A stretch of 5,682 bases of DNA from a virus (IMGVR_UViG_2778261299_000006:1-5682), one strand, 5' to 3'; counted from the first letter of the stretch, positions 1-5,682 are shown. Notes: generated by a model from the sequence alone, not told the origin. Translations and numbers: made by a program.

Positions 1-111
1 GAAGCCAGCCACGCCGACCTCGCCTGGGCGACCATGCACGCCCTGTTAAATGAGCCACTCACCGCCGGTATCAGCACTCCGCTGACATCCACCATTCTGG
101 AGTTTTACTGA
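1..111 (+). CDS. P: Terminase large (ATPase) subunit, gpP-like; 3' end only, 5' end lies outside the window
   Basis: Frame 1 is open from base 1 for 36 codons (...LAWATMHALLNEPLTAGISTPLTSTILEFY) to TGA at 109-111, which overlaps the ATG of the next gene by one base (TGATG). In P2 the late operon reads P then Q, so the gene directly upstream of the portal is expected to be the terminase. The assignment rests on synteny only; 36 residues are too few to recognise the family directly. Confidence 0.6.
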   Translation, partial: EASHADLAWATMHALLNEPLTAGISTPLTSTILEFY

Positions 112-1130
112 TGAGCAAGAAAAAAGGGAAAACACCGCAACCTGCGGCAAAAACAATGACCGCCAGCGCCCCGAAAATGGAGGCATTCACCTTTGGTGAG
201 CCGGTACCGGTACTCGACCGCCGTGACATTCTGGATTACGTCGAGTGCATCAGTAACGGCAGATGGTATGAGCCGCCGGTCAGCTTTACCGGTCTGGCAA
301 AAAGCCTGCGTGCTGCCGTGCATCACAGCTCACCGATTTACGTCAAACGCAATATTCTGGCCTCGACATTTATCCCGCATCCGTGGCTTTCCCAGCAGGA
401 TTTCAGCCGCTTTGTGCTGGATTTTCTGGTGTTCGGTAATGCGTTTCTGGAAAAGCGTTACAGCACCACCGGTAAAGTTATCAGGCTGGAAACCTCACCG
501 GCAAAATATACCCGCCGTGGTGTGGAAGAGGATGTTTACTGGTGGGTGCCGTCCTTCAACGAGCCGACAGCCTTCGCGCCCGGCTCCGTGTTTCACCTGC
601 TGGAGCCGGATATTAATCAGGAGCTGTACGGCCTGCCGGAATATCTCAGCGCCCTTAACTCTGCCTGGCTGAATGAGTCGGCCACGCTGTTCCGCCGCAA
701 GTATTACGAAAACGGCGCACATGCCGGATACATCATGTACGTCACCGATGCCGTGCAGGATCGCAACGATATCGAAATGCTTCGCGAAAACATGGTTAAG
801 TCGAAAGGCCGCAATAACTTTAAAAACCTGTTTCTCTACGCCCCGCAGGGAAAAGCCGACGGTATTAAAATTATCCCGCTCAGTGAAGTGGCGACGAAGG
901 ACGATTTTTTTAATATCAAAAAAGCCAGTGCGGAAGATCTAATGAGTGCACATCGAGTCCCCCCGCAAATGATTGGGATGATGCCTAATAATGCAGGAGG
1001 ATTTGGCGATGTAGTTAAAGCTGCTAAAGTTTTTGTCAGGAATGAGTTAGGGCACCTACAATCGCGAATGAAGGAATTGAACTCATGGATAGGTGAAACC
1101 GTTATAACATTTAACAATTACTCGTTATAA
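111..1130 (+). CDS. Q: Phage portal protein, P2 gpQ-like (339 aa)
   Basis: ATG at 111 is preceded by GGAG (99-102) at an 8-nt spacing. The 339-aa product (MSKKKGKTPQPAAKTMTASAPKMEAFTFGEPVPVLDRRDILDYVECISNGRWYEPPV...) matches my recollection of the P2 portal protein Q. GC is about 55% over the first part of the gene. Position is consistent with P2 synteny: P then Q, then cos. Confidence 0.9.
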   Translation: MSKKKGKTPQPAAKTMTASAPKMEAFTFGEPVPVLDRRDILDYVECISNGRWYEPPVSFTGLAKSLRAAVHHSSPIYVKRNILASTFIPHPWLSQQDFSRFVLDFLVFGNAFLEKRYSTTGKVIRLETSPAKYTRRGVEEDVYWWVPSFNEPTAFAPGSVFHLLEPDINQELYGLPEYLSALNSAWLNESATLFRRKYYENGAHAGYIMYVTDAVQDRNDIEMLRENMVKSKGRNNFKNLFLYAPQGKADGIKIIPLSEVATKDDFFNIKKASAEDLMSAHRVPPQMIGMMPNNAGGFGDVVKAAKVFVRNELGHLQSRMKELNSWIGETVITFNNYSL

Positions 1131-1136
1131 ACCCTG

Positions 1137-1160
1137 CAGGCTTTGGCTCGCCAAAGCCTG
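1137..1160. terminator. GC-rich inverted repeat between convergent genes; putative bidirectional terminator
   Basis: caggctttggc (1137-1147) and gccaaagcctg (1150-1160) are perfect reverse complements (about a 10-bp stem with a ctcg loop). It sits in the 35-bp gap between the stop of Q (1128-1130) and the stop of the minus-strand partner gene (1166-1168). There is no clean U-tract on the plus strand; on the minus strand it is followed by GGTTTATAA, which is only weakly T-rich. Confidence 0.45.
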
Positions 1161-1165
1161 TAAGA

Positions 1166-1783
1166 TCAAGCAGATAGGCAAAACGTTTCTGTTTGCCCCA
1201 AGTGTTCAAACACAGTAATCGATGTTACTTTTCCGGCGCTTATTTTATTAAGGAATTTCAATATTTGTTGAGGCTCCTCCATGACTGCTGTTTTCTTGAT
1301 TATAAATCCTTCAAGATTTTTCAAGCTGTATCGCTGACTTGAGTTCTCAAGAGCAGCAATCATTGCCGAACTGCGCATATCTCTATGTCCACTAGCCCTA
1401 CAAACGACAGCATAATTTAAATCAAGCTCTACAAAATTTTGCCTTGTCAACTCTGGAAGGTGTTTACATACAAAATGAAATAAAGTCGTAACACCTTCAT
1501 GTATTTTCAACCTTATATCATCCTTTTGTGAACGTCCTTCTTTAAATTCAATGAAGTACAATTTATCTTCATGTAAAAATAAAGCATCCGGTGATTTTTC
1601 TTTAAGCTCACGCCTATAAATAGGCGAGCAATTTAACACCGTATCATAGTTAAAGCCCTTCGAATCACAAATAATAAAATACCGTCCCCCGGCATCATTG
1701 TAACTTAATTCGGTTACATCAACCATTGAATCATGGTATACTTCACATAATTTTCTAAAGATAAGCTCCTCATTAGAAATCAT
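1166..1783 (-). CDS. 205-aa partner protein of the ATPase, unknown family; possible PD-(D/E)xK-type nuclease effector
   Basis: ATG at 1783-1781 is preceded by AGGAG at a 7-nt spacing (minus-strand context gaatcAGGAGtatttggATG). The start overlaps the upstream ATPase gene by 11 nt, implying translational coupling. GC is about 30%. Residues 66-82 read DALFLHEDKLYFIEFKE, i.e. a hydrophobic strand ending in D73 followed by E79-x-K81, a pattern compatible with a PD-(D/E)xK core. I see no CxxC pairs as in HNH and no ordered E...DxD TOPRIM motif. Confidence 0.75.
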   Translation of the reverse strand: MISNEELIFRKLCEVYHDSMVDVTELSYNDAGGRYFIICDSKGFNYDTVLNCSPIYRRELKEKSPDALFLHEDKLYFIEFKEGRSQKDDIRLKIHEGVTTLFHFVCKHLPELTRQNFVELDLNYAVVCRASGHRDMRSSAMIAALENSSQRYSLKNLEGFIIKKTAVMEEPQQILKFLNKISAGKVTSITVFEHLGQTETFCLSA

Positions 1784-3101
1784 CCAAATACTCCTGATTC
1801 AATTCTTTTAATGGTGTTGCCAAAAGATTAATTGCATATGCAACATTATCAGTAATATCAACAAAAGATGTAAATTCTTCCCCAGGGAATCGCTCGCTTA
1901 TATAGAACCGATTTTCAACCCCAATTTTGTCGCTAAAATGTTTAAGAGCATCAATAATATATGGGCTATGTGTTGTAATTATTATATCAACCCCCATAGA
2001 CACTAACTCACAAATAATCTCAGCATAGAAAACCTGCCACTTTGGATGTAAGTTCACCTCTGGTTCATCAATAATCAGCAACGAATTATCTACTGCTGCC
2101 CCACACTTAACAAGCATATCAAGAATACCTAAAGACTTTATTCCTGACGCAATATTACTCGATGTGACTTTATAGCCTTGCTTCTCTAGAAAAAAATCAT
2201 TCTTTTCAATATCATAAACCACCTCACCACTGAAAGCGGCATTGATTTTTTTAGATATACGAAGTGATTCATTTAAAAATGAGCCATCATCAAAAATATC
2301 CGAATGCACGAATAAATTATAAACTGAATCGCTTAGTTTTATTGATAGATCTTTCACATGCAATGGAACAGTTAGACGTCCTGATTCACCGTTACTATCA
2401 AATAAAGTTTTAGCAAAACGAACCAAATTATGAAATTGCATAATACTTGGAGAGTCAACATATGTTGCGTCGACATATCCTAAGCCATCAGTATAATCAA
2501 ATTGTGATATACCATCTTTAGTCCATTTAATATCAATTAACTGACTAACACCATCAACAACTTCCAGAGATGCTTTAACTGGATTTTGATTACCCTTCTG
2601 AATAATTTCCCCTCTAAATTCAGAGTAAAAGGCCTTACGCAGAGCGCGGTTGATAGCAGATAACTCATCATCTGGCTCAAGCATTATATCTCTGATTTTT
2701 CTTATATCAGAGAGTACAGAATCCGCCATCAACTCTGGAAGAAGACCTTCATCAATCAATTTATATAGATAACTCTCCCTCTCAGCCAAAGTTTTAGAGA
2801 TATCTATTTTTAGAGAGGCATAAAATTTTCTTGGATTGAATAACTCTCTAATTTCCGGCGTAGCAGCAATATTAATCCTCCTACGCAGATTAAAATATAT
2901 TTTCTCTACAATAGATGTAATTCTATCCTCTTTGTCTTCTTCTAAATCTTCTTGATAACGAGATATCGCCTTTACCATTGAAAACAGTATCTTCCCTACG
3001 GTACTCTTTCCCGTATCATTTTCACCAGTTATGACAGTTAATCCACCAACTGAAACATCAGCTTCCGCAATAGTTCCAAAATTATTAATTTTTATACGCA
3101 T
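1773..3101 (-). CDS. ABC-type / AAA_21-like (OLD or SMC-like) P-loop ATPase, 442 aa; first gene of a two-gene operon
   Basis: Walker A GENDTGKST (aa 26-34) is encoded at 3003-3026, verified by reverse-complement translation. A signature-like SSNIASGIKSLG lies at aa 314-325. Walker B LLIIDEPE (aa 341-348) is encoded at 2061-2081, also verified. An H-loop-like IIITTHSP lies at aa 373-380. About 300 residues separate Walker A and B, which is typical of ABC/SMC-like defence ATPases. ATG at 3101-3099. GC is about 30%, far below the flanking phage core. Confidence 0.85.
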   Translation of the reverse strand: MRIKINNFGTIAEADVSVGGLTVITGENDTGKSTVGKILFSMVKAISRYQEDLEEDKEDRITSIVEKIYFNLRRRINIAATPEIRELFNPRKFYASLKIDISKTLAERESYLYKLIDEGLLPELMADSVLSDIRKIRDIMLEPDDELSAINRALRKAFYSEFRGEIIQKGNQNPVKASLEVVDGVSQLIDIKWTKDGISQFDYTDGLGYVDATYVDSPSIMQFHNLVRFAKTLFDSNGESGRLTVPLHVKDLSIKLSDSVYNLFVHSDIFDDGSFLNESLRISKKINAAFSGEVVYDIEKNDFFLEKQGYKVTSSNIASGIKSLGILDMLVKCGAAVDNSLLIIDEPEVNLHPKWQVFYAEIICELVSMGVDIIITTHSPYIIDALKHFSDKIGVENRFYISERFPGEEFTSFVDITDNVAYAINLLATPLKELNQEYLDDF

Positions 3102-3132
3102 AAACTATCTCACTGTACGCCAGATATCCAAC

Positions 3133-3170
3133 CTTATGAATACTTTAGCATATTTCCACAAAGATGACAC
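3133..3170 (-). promoter_or_regulatory. Putative sigma70-type promoter region for the ATPase-partner operon
   Basis: On the minus strand, GTGTCA (plus coordinates 3165-3170), a 17-bp spacer, then TAAAGT (3142-3147). An alternative pairing is TTGTGG (3156-3161) with CATAAG (3133-3138). Both are only 4/6 or 3/6 matches to consensus. The region is AT-rich and lies 30-70 bp upstream of the ATG at 3101 and 25-60 bp from cos. This is a weak call. Confidence 0.25.
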
Positions 3171-3194
3171 TGGAGGCTGCAGGCCTCGCGCGCA

Positions 3195-3213
3195 GTGCTT
3201 TCCCCGCCTCGCC
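3195..3213. other. cos site: 19-nt cohesive-end sequence of P2-type phages (cosN), joined/intact form
   Basis: Plus strand 3195-3213 is gtgctttccccgcctcgcc, the exact reverse complement of GGCGAGGCGGGGAAAGCAC. I recall that sequence as the P2/P4 cohesive end, and it is at the expected place between the Q side and the A side of the genome. The orientation (GGCGAGG... reading on the minus strand toward Q) fits the P2 left end. Confidence 0.8.
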
Positions 3214-3335
3214 CGCCCGCTTCGCTGGTCACATTTAATGCAGTTGCATGAAGGCGTCAAAACCACACCGGTACTGGCAACAAGTGACCATAAAAACGGC
3301 TTTTGGCACATGCAAAACAATGCACCTAATGCACG

Positions 3336-3366
3336 CACACAAAAACGGGGAAAGTCGCTTTCCCCC
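3336..3366 (-). terminator. Rho-independent terminator downstream of the 174-aa gene
   Basis: Minus strand reads GGGGAAAG-cga-CTTTCCCC (plus coordinates 3347-3365, an 8-bp perfect GC-rich stem) followed immediately by GTTTTTGTGTG. It starts 11 nt after the TGA stop of the 174-aa gene (3379-3377). Confidence 0.7.
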
Positions 3367-3376
3367 ACAAACATTA

Positions 3377-3901
3377 TCAACGCACCGGAATGTAAGATTC
3401 AAGGTCTCTGATTACGGCTTGTTTCAGTGCTTCAGATACAGCCTCAAGTTCTGGCAATGCTGGCTTTTCACTTAAGTTCGTTTCAAATTCCCCGCTTCCT
3501 ATTACTAGCGTAAAGCCATTTCCATCACGTAGCAGTTTCAAAGGAATAATCACGTTTAACTTAGGATGAGCAACCGGTGACTTATCCACTGTAAGACCAA
3601 TAAAAAATGACAAAATCCCATCTGCATCAGGCAACAGATCGTGTAACTGAACTTTAGATTTTTCACCATCTTTAATTGCAGCGACAAAAACATAATTTTC
3701 AGTGGGGTTTTGCCCTGGATAGCCCCAGCAAGTTTGCTCAAGCTCAAGCGACCCCTCAAAGTTTTTCGCAATCAGCCCAACAATATTTTGTAAACGCTCT
3801 TTTTCCTCTCTCTGTAACCGAACGATTTCAATATACTTATCTCTTATAGTCTGAAAAGTAATCACTTTAGTCTCCTTAAACGGCTTACACAGAAACAGCA
3901 T
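3377..3901 (-). CDS. Hypothetical protein, 174 aa (162 aa if it starts at GTG 3865); orphan accessory gene at the tin/old-equivalent position
   Basis: ORF from ATG 3901-3899 to TGA 3379-3377. GGGGG lies 4 nt upstream of the ATG. An alternative start GTG at 3865-3863 is preceded by AAGGAG at a 5-nt spacing, a better-positioned SD. The gene has its own intrinsic terminator (3336-3366). GC is about 40-42%. I recognise no family motif by eye. Confidence 0.65.
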   Translation of the reverse strand: MLFLCKPFKETKVITFQTIRDKYIEIVRLQREEKERLQNIVGLIAKNFEGSLELEQTCWGYPGQNPTENYVFVAAIKDGEKSKVQLHDLLPDADGILSFFIGLTVDKSPVAHPKLNVIIPLKLLRDGNGFTLVIGSGEFETNLSEKPALPELEAVSEALKQAVIRDLESYIPVR

Positions 3902-3929
3902 TTAACCCCCTGATAATATTTCTTTCAAT
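3900..3929 (-). promoter_or_regulatory. Putative promoter for the 174-aa gene
   Basis: On the minus strand, TTGAAA (plus coordinates 3924-3929), an 18-bp spacer, then TTAAAT (3900-3905). The -10 overlaps the ATG at 3901, so this promoter would favour the GTG 3865 start with its AAGGAG SD. An alternative -10, TATTAT (3913-3918), has a poor -35. Low confidence. Confidence 0.25.
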
Positions 3930-4213
3930 AATTTTCCTAACGCCTCGCTACGCTCGTTGTTCAACCCCGTCAGCCCTGAAAACAAGTTTCACGACTGGCG
4001 GCGTTCTCTATCGTCTGCGTGGTGGTGACGTAACTCTTGATTGACCGATATGGTTAAACCGCCCGTCATTATCCCGGACTATTTCGGCACACCCGACCAG
4101 CTCATCGGGCGTCAGATTTTCGTTGACCATAATCCGCTGTAAACGCTGAACAATAGCCATCAGCTTGATATTTTTAGTTTTATGGTGCGGTATCTCGCCT
4201 GGTATTCTGTGCA

Positions 4214-4666
4214 TTATCCAAGCCACCCGTTTTGCTGTGCACGCTCCATCTGTTCATCTGAATAGTTCCATGCTCCATCCGTGGCAACCATTGCCCCGCC
4301 AGACATCCCTGTCTCTGGTTCATACATAACAGCAAGGCCGAGCTGATGCATAATTTCATGATTAATTCTGAATACCAGACCACGCTCACTAAGTTCTTTC
4401 CAGTTCACAATCTCATATGCGCATGTATTAAGCAGATCAATACTTAGCAAGACATAATCTTCCAGCCAGTCTGACAGGTCAGTAACATCTGTTATCCGGG
4501 CTTCAACCTTTCGCCCCGTGTACACACCCTGCACCCATTCATGCAAAATCAACGTGTCCCCGCGCTCATAATTACGGTCATTTTTCCGAAACTCTGCGCG
4601 TTTCTTTCCTTCCAGCACAAGGTCGAAATATTTTGCGTGCAGCTTTACCTCGTGAATTTTTGCCAT
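4214..4666 (-). CDS. ASCH / DUF3850-like domain protein (orf91-position gene) with a C-terminal extension carrying HEIMH; 150 aa
   Basis: True start is taken as ATG 4666-4664 (MAKIHEVKLHAKYFDLVLEGKKRAEFRKNDRNYERGDTLILHEW...), not the upstream GTG at 4702 reported in the ORF track. GGAG lies 8 nt upstream. The ATG overlaps the TAA stop of gene A by one base (TAATG). The N-terminal ~75 aa resemble the ASCH-like DUF3850 pattern as I recall it. The C-terminal half contains INHEIMHQLGL...YEPE. The position immediately downstream of A matches P2 orf91. Confidence 0.75.
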   Translation of the reverse strand: MAKIHEVKLHAKYFDLVLEGKKRAEFRKNDRNYERGDTLILHEWVQGVYTGRKVEARITDVTDLSDWLEDYVLLSIDLLNTCAYEIVNWKELSERGLVFRINHEIMHQLGLAVMYEPETGMSGGAMVATDGAWNYSDEQMERAQQNGWLG

Positions 4667-5682
4667 TATGTCCACTCCATTACTGTTGAGAATCCCGGCC
4701 ACTCATCAGCGACCGGATACGTGAATTTTTTCCCGTCATAATTTACGGTCGCGCCACGCGCCAGCGCCTCAAGCTCCCATCGCTGCGGCCTGATACCGTT
4801 CTGAGCAAGGTCAACGCGGATACGGGTAATTTGCATTCTTTCCGACCGGGTCAGTCTGACCGATGGTGCAATTTCATGTGGTTTTAACGGGCTTCCGTTT
4901 CTTTGCTGACGGTTTGGCGTTCTCAGGTCGTGTTTTAATGCGCCCCTGAGCGCCCTCACGACCTCCGGTTCATTCCATTCAATAACACCGCCATCAACCA
5001 GATTAAGCACTGCTGCGGCGTGCTCAGAAGGTGTGGGAACCAGTAACGAAGTATCACCACCGGAGAGCTTTCCACAGTTATTGACAGGACTCCGAGGCGC
5101 GGCGATGCCGCTTTTTAAAGTCAAAGGCTCAACGACCGGCACTTTCGGCACAATGCGCCAGTCCGTGGTTCTGGTGATATGAATATGACGCGCGCCGAGA
5201 TGCGGCGCGTAAATGCCGACCACTCTCTCGACTTCTTCCTCGTACTCGTTAACGTCATCCGACGGGCTACGGGCGACCCTGACAGTCTGACAATCGCGCG
5301 GGACATTTGCCCCGCCCTGCGCGCTGATATACAACGCAAAATCACCACTGTCTGCGGCGGCGCGTGCAGCCTCGACGCGTTCGTCAAACTCATCAGCAAT
5401 GCTGACGCCGCGAGGCAATTTGCGTAGTTCACGGTAAGCACCCATTGTCGGCAGGCCAACCGTTTTAAATTGCGGAATGCGCCACGTTGACGCCCATGCG
5501 GTAACAGCCGCGGCAGTATCTTTCAGCGGTCTGCCGGTATCGTTATCGAGCTGCCCATCCAGTGCATAGCCGTCGATATTTTTTGAGATGTATTTCGCGA
5601 TATACCCCGCAGCACCGCCCCGGTTAAGGTGTTTTGCCTGAAAACGGTTTCGCGCGGCTCCTCTTTCGTCACCATCCTCTTT
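4666..5682 (-). CDS. A: Rolling-circle replication initiator, P2 gpA-like; C-terminal 338 codons, 5' end outside the window
   Basis: I translated the minus-strand frame by hand from 5682 down to TAA at 4668-4666 and found no stop, so the gene enters from beyond the window edge. It contains GYIAKYISKNIDGY (Tyr codons at 5604-5602 and 5592-5590), the Y-x-x-K-Y two-tyrosine motif of phiX174/P2-type RCR initiators. The second Tyr is 308 residues from the C-terminus, which fits the P2 A active-site position as I remember it. GC is about 55%. Confidence 0.9.
   Translation of the reverse strand, partial: KEDGDERGAARNRFQAKHLNRGGAAGYIAKYISKNIDGYALDGQLDNDTGRPLKDTAAAVTAWASTWRIPQFKTVGLPTMGAYRELRKLPRGVSIADEFDERVEAARAAADSGDFALYISAQGGANVPRDCQTVRVARSPSDDVNEYEEEVERVVGIYAPHLGARHIHITRTTDWRIVPKVPVVEPLTLKSGIAAPRSPVNNCGKLSGGDTSLLVPTPSEHAAAVLNLVDGGVIEWNEPEVVRALRGALKHDLRTPNRQQRNGSPLKPHEIAPSVRLTRSERMQITRIRVDLAQNGIRPQRWELEALARGATVNYDGKKFTYPVADEWPGFSTVMEWT

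Follow-up and report, generated by a model that had tools for sequence, protein, structure and literature searches.

Mosaic portal gene Q and cos-bounded cargo cassettes in the packaging-end region of a P2-type prophage

Gene content of the packaging-end region

The window, i.e. the whole stretch of viral DNA that was analysed (5,682 nucleotides, IMGVR_UViG_2778261299_000006:1-5682), covers the packaging end of a P2-type prophage, with the portal gene Q on the plus strand. The following features were delimited.

1-113, plus strand: 3' end of the terminase gene P (P2 gpP type, from homology to P2), overlapping the start of Q
111-1130, plus strand: whole portal gene Q (339 aa, against 344 in P2)
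111-928, plus strand: P2-type body of Q, codons 1-272 (GC 0.526; Pfam Phage_portal, E = 1.6e-16)
879-928, plus strand: interval holding the left crossover, a conserved block encoding ...VATKDDFFNIKKAS
929-1130, plus strand: foreign low-GC tail of Q, codons 273-339 and stop
1137-1160, no strand: hairpin with a perfect 10-bp stem, located where Q and the cargo genes converge
1166-1783, minus strand: cargo gene 2, coding for a 205-aa protein
1773-3101, minus strand: cargo gene 1, coding for a 442-aa ABC-type ATPase (AAA_15/AAA_21)
3102-3187, minus strand: sequence upstream of the cargo operon, which closes the replaced block on the right
3188-3249, no strand: cos core, made of GCGCGCA (3188-3194), the 19-nt cohesive end GTGCTTTCCCCGCCTCGCC (3195-3213) and a conserved right-hand sequence
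3250-4445, minus strand: second cassette on the old/tin side of cos, with a 174-aa ORF (3377-3901), a 72-aa ORF (4008-4226) and the non-P2 3' part of an orf91-like gene
4214-4702, minus strand: the orf91-like DUF3850/ASCH gene, of which residues 1-75 are 96% identical to P2 orf91
4446-5682, minus strand: resumed P2-type backbone, with 1 kb from the 3' end of gene A and with the orf91 homologue in its 5' part (96.5% nucleotide identity to P2)

Positions 1-931 of the window are 97.6% identical to positions 401-1331 of the P2 record, where Q and P are annotated. Comparison with P2 by blast returned matches solely at 1-931, 3188-3242 (89% identity) and 4446-5682, and the foreign block on the Q side thus extends from 929 to 3187. 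The last part of this block (3102-3187) resembles neither P2 nor loci with other cargos, and similarity begins only at position 3188. At the far end of the window, residues 424-761 of gpA are encoded in frame and are 97% identical to P2. A disruption of the replication gene A, hinted at by the ORF list, was ruled out, as the frame is open to the window end.

In the P2 layout, 167 bp separate the stop codon of Q from cos, and the old and tin genes lie beyond cos. Here, the distance between the Q stop and cos amounts to ~2.06 kb (2065 bp), and the ATPase operon is therefore located between Q and cos and not in the old/tin position. Three features of the gpA-gpQ hotspot were found at this locus, namely flanks made of Q and of gene A-orf91, a P2-type cos, and variable content among near-identical phages.

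The 442-aa ATPase is matched by the Pfam families AAA_21 (5e-19) and AAA_15 (3e-18). In PADLOC it is matched by HEC-02A (1.1e-33) and PD-T4-4_A (6.1e-31), the best stretch covering only residues ~270-396, and it also matches the AriA, PtuA and Old profiles. The gene for the 205-aa protein always follows the ATPase gene directly, with an overlap of 11 nt in the window. No match for this protein was obtained in PADLOC (E <= 0.01), Pfam or NCBIfam. Its homologues form 56 clusters, all of ~200 aa and from Gammaproteobacteria, and an alignment of 39 sequences revealed an invariant S-P-D65 ... E78-x-K80 pattern resembling PD-(D/E)xK. On the strength of this motif, the 205-aa protein is a probable nuclease effector. 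A profile search against PDB sequences gave no match for it, and its single-sequence model reached a pLDDT of 42.

Homologues of the gene pair, with ATPases of 67-82% amino-acid identity, occupy the slot between Q and cos in two metagenome/SRA contigs and in P2-like prophages of four genera (Cronobacter, Enterobacter, Pectobacterium and Yersinia); for the cargo in this slot, amino-acid identities were 67-79%. The homologous pair is also present beside the integrases of unrelated prophages. The combination of an AAA_15/AAA_21 ATPase with a small partner gene is shared with PD-T4-4, HEC-02, Septu PtuAB, PARIS AriAB and OLD/Gabija, and the similarity of the ATPase domains to defence ATPases suggests that the cargo may be a defence system. 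In contrast to PD-T4-4, HEC-02 and the other systems, the 205-aa partner corresponds to no B-component profile and to no Pfam family. The cargo was not filed as a member of PD-T4-4 or HEC-02 because its B component has no PADLOC match.

The hairpin at 1137-1160 has a minimum free energy of -19.7 kcal/mol (z = -3.6), and none of 200 shuffled sequences folded equally well. It possibly serves as a two-way terminator. As a candidate intrinsic terminator it was rejected, with no clear T run and no call in a terminator scan.

The junction within Q

Up to position 928, the nucleotide identity shared with P2 and with dozens of P2-type Q genes stays uniform (~97-98%), and it collapses beyond. In bins of 30 nt against P2 Q, identity is 90-100% up to position 920 and 47-63% further on. 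A maximum chi-square analysis clearly placed the change point at position 928 (chi2 = 304, against 18.8 or less in 500 permutations), where the mismatch to P2 rises from 0.024 on the left to 0.452 on the right. The last mismatch before the break is located at 878 and the next ones at 929, 932 and 934, therefore the left crossover falls within 879-928. At the protein level, the first 272 residues contain a single difference from P2, the tail shares ~58% amino-acid identity with that of P2 (SAEDLMSAHRVPPQMIGMMPNNAGGFGD... here, SAADLLDAHRIPFQLMGGKPENVGSLGD... in P2), and the gene ends five codons sooner than P2 Q. Both the reading frame and the conserved residues are retained in the chimeric tail. 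No PDB relative of the portal was found by sequence, and an AlphaFold2 model built from a 66-sequence alignment (pLDDT 45.9) was too poor for a fold search.

A sequence-only reading of this DNA had suggested, from base composition, that a recombination junction lies in the 3' end of Q and that its C-terminal ~60 codons were replaced. The alignment to Q genes of P2 and P2-like phages that it called for revealed the sharp drop in identity at 928/929, and the replaced segment turned out to be somewhat larger, with 67 codons (273-339). Uniform identity along the whole of Q, with the same low-GC end in all reference genes, was looked for as well and does not hold. The interpretation of the end of Q as a recombination junction is thus supported. 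The GC contents given for 121-310 (~56%) and 941-1130 (~40%) agree with exact counts of 0.558 and 0.405. The cargo is indeed poor in GC, at a value slightly higher than the ~30% proposed (0.348 over the ORFs at 1166-3101).

Over the tail as a whole (929-1130) GC is 0.411. No 190-nt window within the P2-like part of Q (111-928) falls below 0.447, and the tail is therefore beyond the GC range of the gene itself. The decrease occurs chiefly at synonymous sites of the last 65 codons, with little shift at the first and second codon positions: GC1, GC2 and GC3 of the tail are 0.51, 0.35 and 0.37, against 0.61, 0.30 and 0.74 for the same codons of P2 Q. With its GC3 of 0.37 the tail approaches the cargo genes (0.25-0.31). 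In P2 and 57 near-identical Q genes, the tail has a GC of ~0.54-0.56 and a GC3 of 0.69-0.76.

The bin at 891-920 has a mean pairwise nucleotide identity of 0.79 across 37 diverse Q genes, which is among the highest of the gene. It is the last conservation peak before the 3' end of Q, and equal peaks exist upstream. This peak fits the idea of the Q end acting as a homology anchor, without amounting to proof; the junctions of other cargos are located more 3'.

The tail and the body of Q point to different relatives. The body is nearest to the P2 clade (98% nucleotide identity), while the nearest relatives of the tail belong to lineages with bodies that are 67-80% identical. The closest tails outside the module's own copies are 71% identical in nucleotides or 77-80% in amino acids. 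Among loci with bodies at least 95% identical to that of the window, and with the module's own copies excluded, the median tail identity is 56%; for loci with bodies below 90%, the median is 62% and the maximum 70%. Identity to the window in the tail is negatively correlated with that in the body (Spearman rho -0.42), and the incongruence between the 5' and 3' parts of Q, for which the earlier reading had proposed to look, was found. The tails of Dryocola, Buttiauxella and L330 are 77-80% identical in amino acids to the window tail, versus 58% for the P2 tail. The window tail is of a type ('HRVPPQMMG...PNN.GGFGDV') that is common in lineages other than P2, such as Buttiauxella, Dryocola, Cronobacter and Photorhabdus, and both the 339-aa length and the ...YSL end of the window Q are typical of these distant lineages.

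In search of a donor, the 70-aa tail was scanned against IMG/VR, GTDB (one genome per species) and JGI/ENA metagenomes, with the module's own copies (99% identical) excluded. No tail above 80% amino-acid identity was obtained in these collections. P2-like phages of Providencia were considered as donors and rejected: their Q is uniformly low in GC, but their tails are just 61-65% identical. The low GC of the tail may reflect a long association with AT-rich accessory DNA or descent from a P2-like phage whose host is low in GC.

The boundary at cos and the association of the tail with cargo

The cohesive end of the window (GTGCTTTCCCCGCCTCGCC) is identical to that of P2, with an exact match of the cosL/cosR sequence. 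In 18 loci with varied cargo, the sequence left of cos is unrelated until GCGCGCA, which is followed by the cohesive end and the conserved right-hand sequence. Since homology resumes at GCGCGCA in all 18, a constant 7 bp separates the end of the Q-side cassette from the terminase cut.

The linkage across cos was investigated in 178 non-redundant loci, using the 40 nt right of the overhang. The median identity of this segment is 0.97 between loci with matching right and different left cassettes, versus 0.82 between loci with matching left flanks and different right cassettes (background 0.72). Linkage thus breaks within the 26 nt formed by GCGCGCA and the cohesive end. The same is evident from individual loci. 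Positions 1-3249 of the window are common to L003 and L138 and the region beyond is not, while positions 3188-5682 are common to L004, the Q-side cargo of which is a different ATPase of 645 aa. The second cassette (3250-4445) is accordingly present in L004 and absent from L003 and L138, which have the Q-side cargo of the window. Its ORFs gave no family match in PADLOC, Pfam or NCBIfam. These comparisons clearly demonstrate that the two sides of cos assort independently.

A scan of IMG/VR with the body of Q gave 64 loci with bodies at least 97% identical to that of the window and a further 16 at ~80-83%. Among the bodies at 97% or more, 55 of the 56 loci with the canonical P2 tail and a located cos have an empty gap of ~170 bp between Q and cos, and all seven loci with a non-canonical tail (7/7) hold a cargo of 943-2309 bp at this place. 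A hypergeometric estimate for the association of tail type and site occupancy gave p ~1e-8, though just six tail types are independent. The one exception among the 56 is locus L114, where the Q-side insert starts inside the spacer, so that 134 nt of P2 spacer are kept and the P2 tail is untouched; insertions therefore do not always involve Q. The P2-type tail with an empty spacer is also carried by Q bodies that are just 80% identical to that of P2 (L156-L165), and the 'empty allele' therefore moves too.

An abrupt break at the 3' end was detected in 594 pairs of near-identical Q genes. In every pair at least one partner has a Q-side cargo, and a tail break between two phages with empty sites was found in none of the 594. 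The breaks are located at ~925-931, 1050, 1063, 1091, 1099, 1115 and 1127 (window coordinates), each being tied to one cargo type, which gives at least seven different junctions. No graded intermediates between the P2 tail and the window tail were observed among 66 loci.

The same pattern was recovered from composition. Across 208 loci drawn from three collections, the difference between tail and body GC3 has a median of -0.065 in occupied loci (57 unique tails) versus +0.085 in empty ones (110), with a Mann-Whitney p = 4e-14. A difference below -0.10 was found in 23 of 57 occupied and 2 of 110 empty loci, and the window reaches -0.26. The p-values overstate the support because of the relatedness among the loci, of which the independent tail types number at least six or seven. 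Foreign or low-GC tails are thus almost confined to loci with cargo between Q and cos.

The tail of the window follows its own cargo in the same manner. The copies examined comprise four IMG/VR contigs, one metagenome contig, E. coli MB06022 (L003) and a 3.8-kb E. coli record which starts exactly at position 929 of the window. All of them carry both cargo genes, with 2065 bp from the Q stop to cos in each. At 95% identity or more, the tail is present in 8 of 5426 complete E. coli genomes, a number which agrees with the eight records of the ATPase arrangement (a match by count). The sequence-only reading had proposed that the end of Q was replaced together with the downstream cargo. This is supported by the linkage of tail and cargo, and their association makes it likely that both arrived in a single event.

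A direct example of a tail-cargo block on different backbones was obtained from L064 and L083, which share ~93-100% identity over the cargo and the tail (the final 200 nt of Q) and ~80% over the Q bodies. Their junction is near nucleotides 810-840 of Q, the equivalent in the window being 818. Most other cases of the same cargo on different Q bodies were discarded as artefacts of truncated body alignments, and L064/L083 alone survived.

Over longer distances the association is looser. In the cargo family, ATPase identity tracks the identity of the Q body (rho 0.82) better than that of the tail (rho 0.40). Three P2-like relatives with the pair display a tail GC3 of 0.30-0.39 on a GC-rich body, and two others (L332 and L333) have GC-rich tails. 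The two correlations and the GC-rich tails therefore indicate that tail and cargo are separable over long times. The idea that both co-diverged as a unit across the cargo family was dropped in view of the weak tail-ATPase correlation.

Origin of the mosaic and its significance

The reading that we favour, at a probability of about 0.8, is that 929-3187 is a foreign block which was acquired from a diverged P2-like phage by recombination in Q and has its right boundary at cos. Two P2-like genomes would have met in one cell and exchanged a cassette, the donor being a diverged P2-like phage with a homologous Q and an ATPase-nuclease-like cargo. The left crossover would have taken place in the conserved block encoding VATKDDFFNIKKAS, giving an in-frame chimeric portal of 339 aa. 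Two options may account for the right boundary: a second crossover inside the ~60-bp conserved cos core, or the joining of terminase-cut cohesive ends from different phages. With cohesive-end joining, a single crossover in Q would suffice for an exchange of the terminal segment of the virion chromosome. The sequence appears compatible with both. Rousset et al. proposed that cohesive ends made by the terminase or present after injection serve as recombination substrate, together with a second homologous crossover (PMC9122126). A fixed end at the cut site, a variable end that depends on homology and unlinked sides of cos fit well with this proposal.

The most serious alternative, which we consider unlikely, is that two events occurred, the tail of Q being swapped with another P2-like prophage and the cargo being inserted by cos independently. 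The cargo of L114, placed by cos next to an intact P2 tail, and the poor co-divergence of tail and cargo in the wider family both speak for it. So does the comparison of tail types: the window-type and L010/L121-type tails are 95% identical over the first 20-odd nt past the junction and then diverge, with breaks at 955-1013. For L010-type tails the likeness spans the first 25-85 nt, and such a pattern implies extra crossovers and suggests that later ones took place within the tail itself. Against two events stands the finding that the tail was never seen without this cargo and that no P2-clade locus was observed with the cargo but lacking the tail. A tail exchanged on its own is also at odds with the lack of a break among pairs of empty-site phages and with the closeness of tail and cargo in GC3.

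It was also considered that the linkage of tail and cargo is held by selection, either because the portal avoids the phage's own system or because it suits the packaging of a longer left end. Portal tail and cargo are indeed adjacent and co-occurring, and selection could hold alongside recombination in Q. It is nevertheless improbable as the explanation, since foreign tails go with many unrelated cargos, through junctions ranging from codon 273 to the last six codons, and since L332 and L333 combine this cargo family with GC-rich tails of the native type. The broader notion that the C-terminal segment of the portal is a functional part of the cassette, with portal alleles and defence cargo being co-selected, is given a slightly better yet still low chance. 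The variety of junctions and the native-type tails found with the same cargo family argue for plain hitch-hiking. Under the broader notion, every Q-side defence cargo would be accompanied by a matched tail, which might spare the phage's own portal from triggering the ATPase-nuclease system, or might adapt the packaging end to the DNA inserted.

That fast or relaxed evolution made the tail diverge in place, with no recombination involved, is very improbable. In its favour, no donor was found for the tail, which is at most 71% identical in nucleotides to anything sampled outside its own module. The mismatch however increases from 2.4% to 45% within one codon, and the tail is nearer to distant lineages than to the P2 tail, from which it also departs by a length and a ...YSL end of the kind found in those lineages, with frame and conserved residues intact. 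Finally, a low-GC end intrinsic to P2-type portal genes, with no junction at all, is refuted by the GC-rich tails of P2 and its 57 near-identical Q genes and by the collapse of identity at 929, even if GC is already 0.47-0.48 over nucleotides 601-822 of Q in the window and in P2 alike, so that the gentle fall over ~700-920 is partly intrinsic.

The window lies in a well-described setting. The gpA-gpQ hotspot (old/tin, 'TO') is likewise flanked by Q and A/orf91, contains cos and holds variable cargo with defence domains. It is adjacent to cos and carries defence cargo (PMC9122126, PMC9519451, bioRxiv 10.1101/2024.10.15.618418), and its content is swapped very fast and is hardly linked to core genes (PMC13586616). 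These papers already raise, as a possibility, homologous recombination through the flanking genes. The published hotspot, as far as its descriptions could be consulted, is one interval between whole flanking proteins, in contrast to the two cassettes abutting cos found here, of which the one on the Q side carries a variable length of the portal 3' end. The searchable text of the hotspot papers contains no mention of a mosaic 3' end of Q, of two cassettes split by cos, or of the 7-bp boundary. Clustering of proteins at 90% groups the chimeric Q together with that of P2, and the portal scar is thus invisible to surveys based on protein clusters. This merging may explain why the scar went unremarked.

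Two further systems share part of this anatomy. Phage mosaicism through homologous or relaxed homologous recombination at short conserved segments (for instance PMC3945230, on temperate phages and defective prophages) displays the same abrupt change of identity within a gene, a locally conserved junction, an in-frame chimera and several alternative junctions among lineages; it differs from the present case, in which one boundary, instead of being a crossover zone set by homology, is fixed at 7 bp from the terminase cut site. In the psu-int defence hotspot of P4-like satellites (PMC9122126), the cargo abuts the same conserved cos core, but the P4 element has other flanking genes and no portal gene. 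P2 and P4 rarely have cargo in common (PMC13586616).

The hotspot and the recombination idea are published, and the scar in the portal tail is a new detail. The present case is therefore best regarded as a well-supported new example of a known event with some new anatomical detail, being confirmatory more than surprising. The gpA-gpQ hotspot of P2 is among the richest known sources of anti-phage systems, and the fast turnover of its cargo has only been speculated on. The window and ~200 related loci provide a physical footprint of this turnover, with cassettes ending at cos and inside the portal gene, which makes a model of one cos end plus one homologous crossover testable. The exact boundaries of the cassettes are now defined, which is useful for mining and engineering, and surveys of whole-protein clusters are warned that they miss such scars. 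For the phages themselves, the footprint suggests that chimeric C-termini are tolerated by an essential structural gene.

The orf91 flank and the right-hand side of cos

On its other flank, the hotspot is bounded by a homologue of orf91, which lies next to the A-side cassette (the second cassette, on the old/tin side of the packaging site cos). Two features of this side are as follows.

4214-4702: orf91 homologue, mosaic, with a junction at about 4445
3345-3368, minus strand: hairpin resembling a terminator, with a T run (GGGGAAAGCGACTTTCCCC and GTTTTTGTGT)

The orf91 homologue encodes 162 aa versus 109 aa in P2, and contains the domains DUF3850/ASCH and DUF7415. Comparison with P2 Orf91 gave 96% identity across residues 1-75, beyond which the 3' end has been replaced. 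The A-side cassette has thus left in its flanking gene a scar which is the mirror image of that on the Q side, in the portal gene.

The hairpin is located just past a 174-aa ORF and faces cos, a position in which it would keep transcription in the A-side cassette from running into cos. Immediately to the right of the cohesive end, positions 3214-3232 of the window and the equivalent stretch of the related locus L004 read CGCCCGCTTCGC(T/G)GGTCACAT, while P2 and most other loci display the small inverted repeat CGCCCGCTTCA(C/T)GGGGCGGTT at this place. The variant shared by the window and L004 goes along with the right-hand cassette.

For E. coli Z142-6 there is a linear record of 3847 bp (NZ_CP159691.1) whose annotation reads 'plasmid unnamed3'; it is 99.7% identical to window positions 929-4775, and its first base corresponds exactly to the Q junction. 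Rather than a plasmid, this record is probably a fragment produced in assembly from the variable region, which lies between repeated P2-like flanks.

Alternative occupants of the Q-cos slot

A different Q-side cargo was observed in L121 (7124-8871 of that locus) and L010, where the junction in Q is at nearly the same place as in the window (about 925). This cargo encodes a 433-aa ABC-type ATPase and a 145-aa partner on the minus strand, an architecture identical to that of the window cargo, and it was not detected by tblastn using the window proteins as queries. In L114, the canonical P2 Q tail is retained, as is the Q-cos spacer of P2 over its initial 134 nt; an insert of 1.27 kb follows this spacer remnant and reaches GCGCGCA-cos, making L114 the sole case of Q-side cargo with an unaltered Q.

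In L156-L165, a P2-type tail (IPFQLMGGKPENVGSLGD...) and an empty 170-bp spacer are found on Q bodies that are just 80-81% identical to that of P2. It therefore seems that the slot's 'empty' allele, too, passes from one lineage to another.

The cargo family and its other locations

The 205-aa cargo protein (1166-1783) belongs to an unannotated family of 56 clusters, in which S-P-D65, E78 and K80 are invariant and form a PD-(D/E)xK-like motif. No match was obtained in Pfam, PADLOC, NCBIfam or PDB sequences.

Homologous cargo (79% aa) is present in L326, a Logan contig (ERR11172909) of which positions ~1-2360 consist of an orphan piece in the order cos, ATPase, 205-aa gene and Q tail. Here cos precedes the ATPase by about 100 nt, and the Q fragment downstream of the cargo begins at ...DGIKIIPLSEVATKDDFFNIKKVSAEDLMSAH..., some 20 codons ahead of the window's junction. 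The Q body is absent, and YafT and PAAR come next. The piece could be a decayed prophage or a cassette unit inserted at another place.

The pair of ATPase and ~205-aa protein also occurs in non-P2 prophages of E. coli (L328, 74% aa to the window cargo, adjoining an EcoRII restriction-modification system) and of Cronobacter (L334, 57% aa), in both cases directly following the integrase. It follows that this cargo moves from one hotspot to another.
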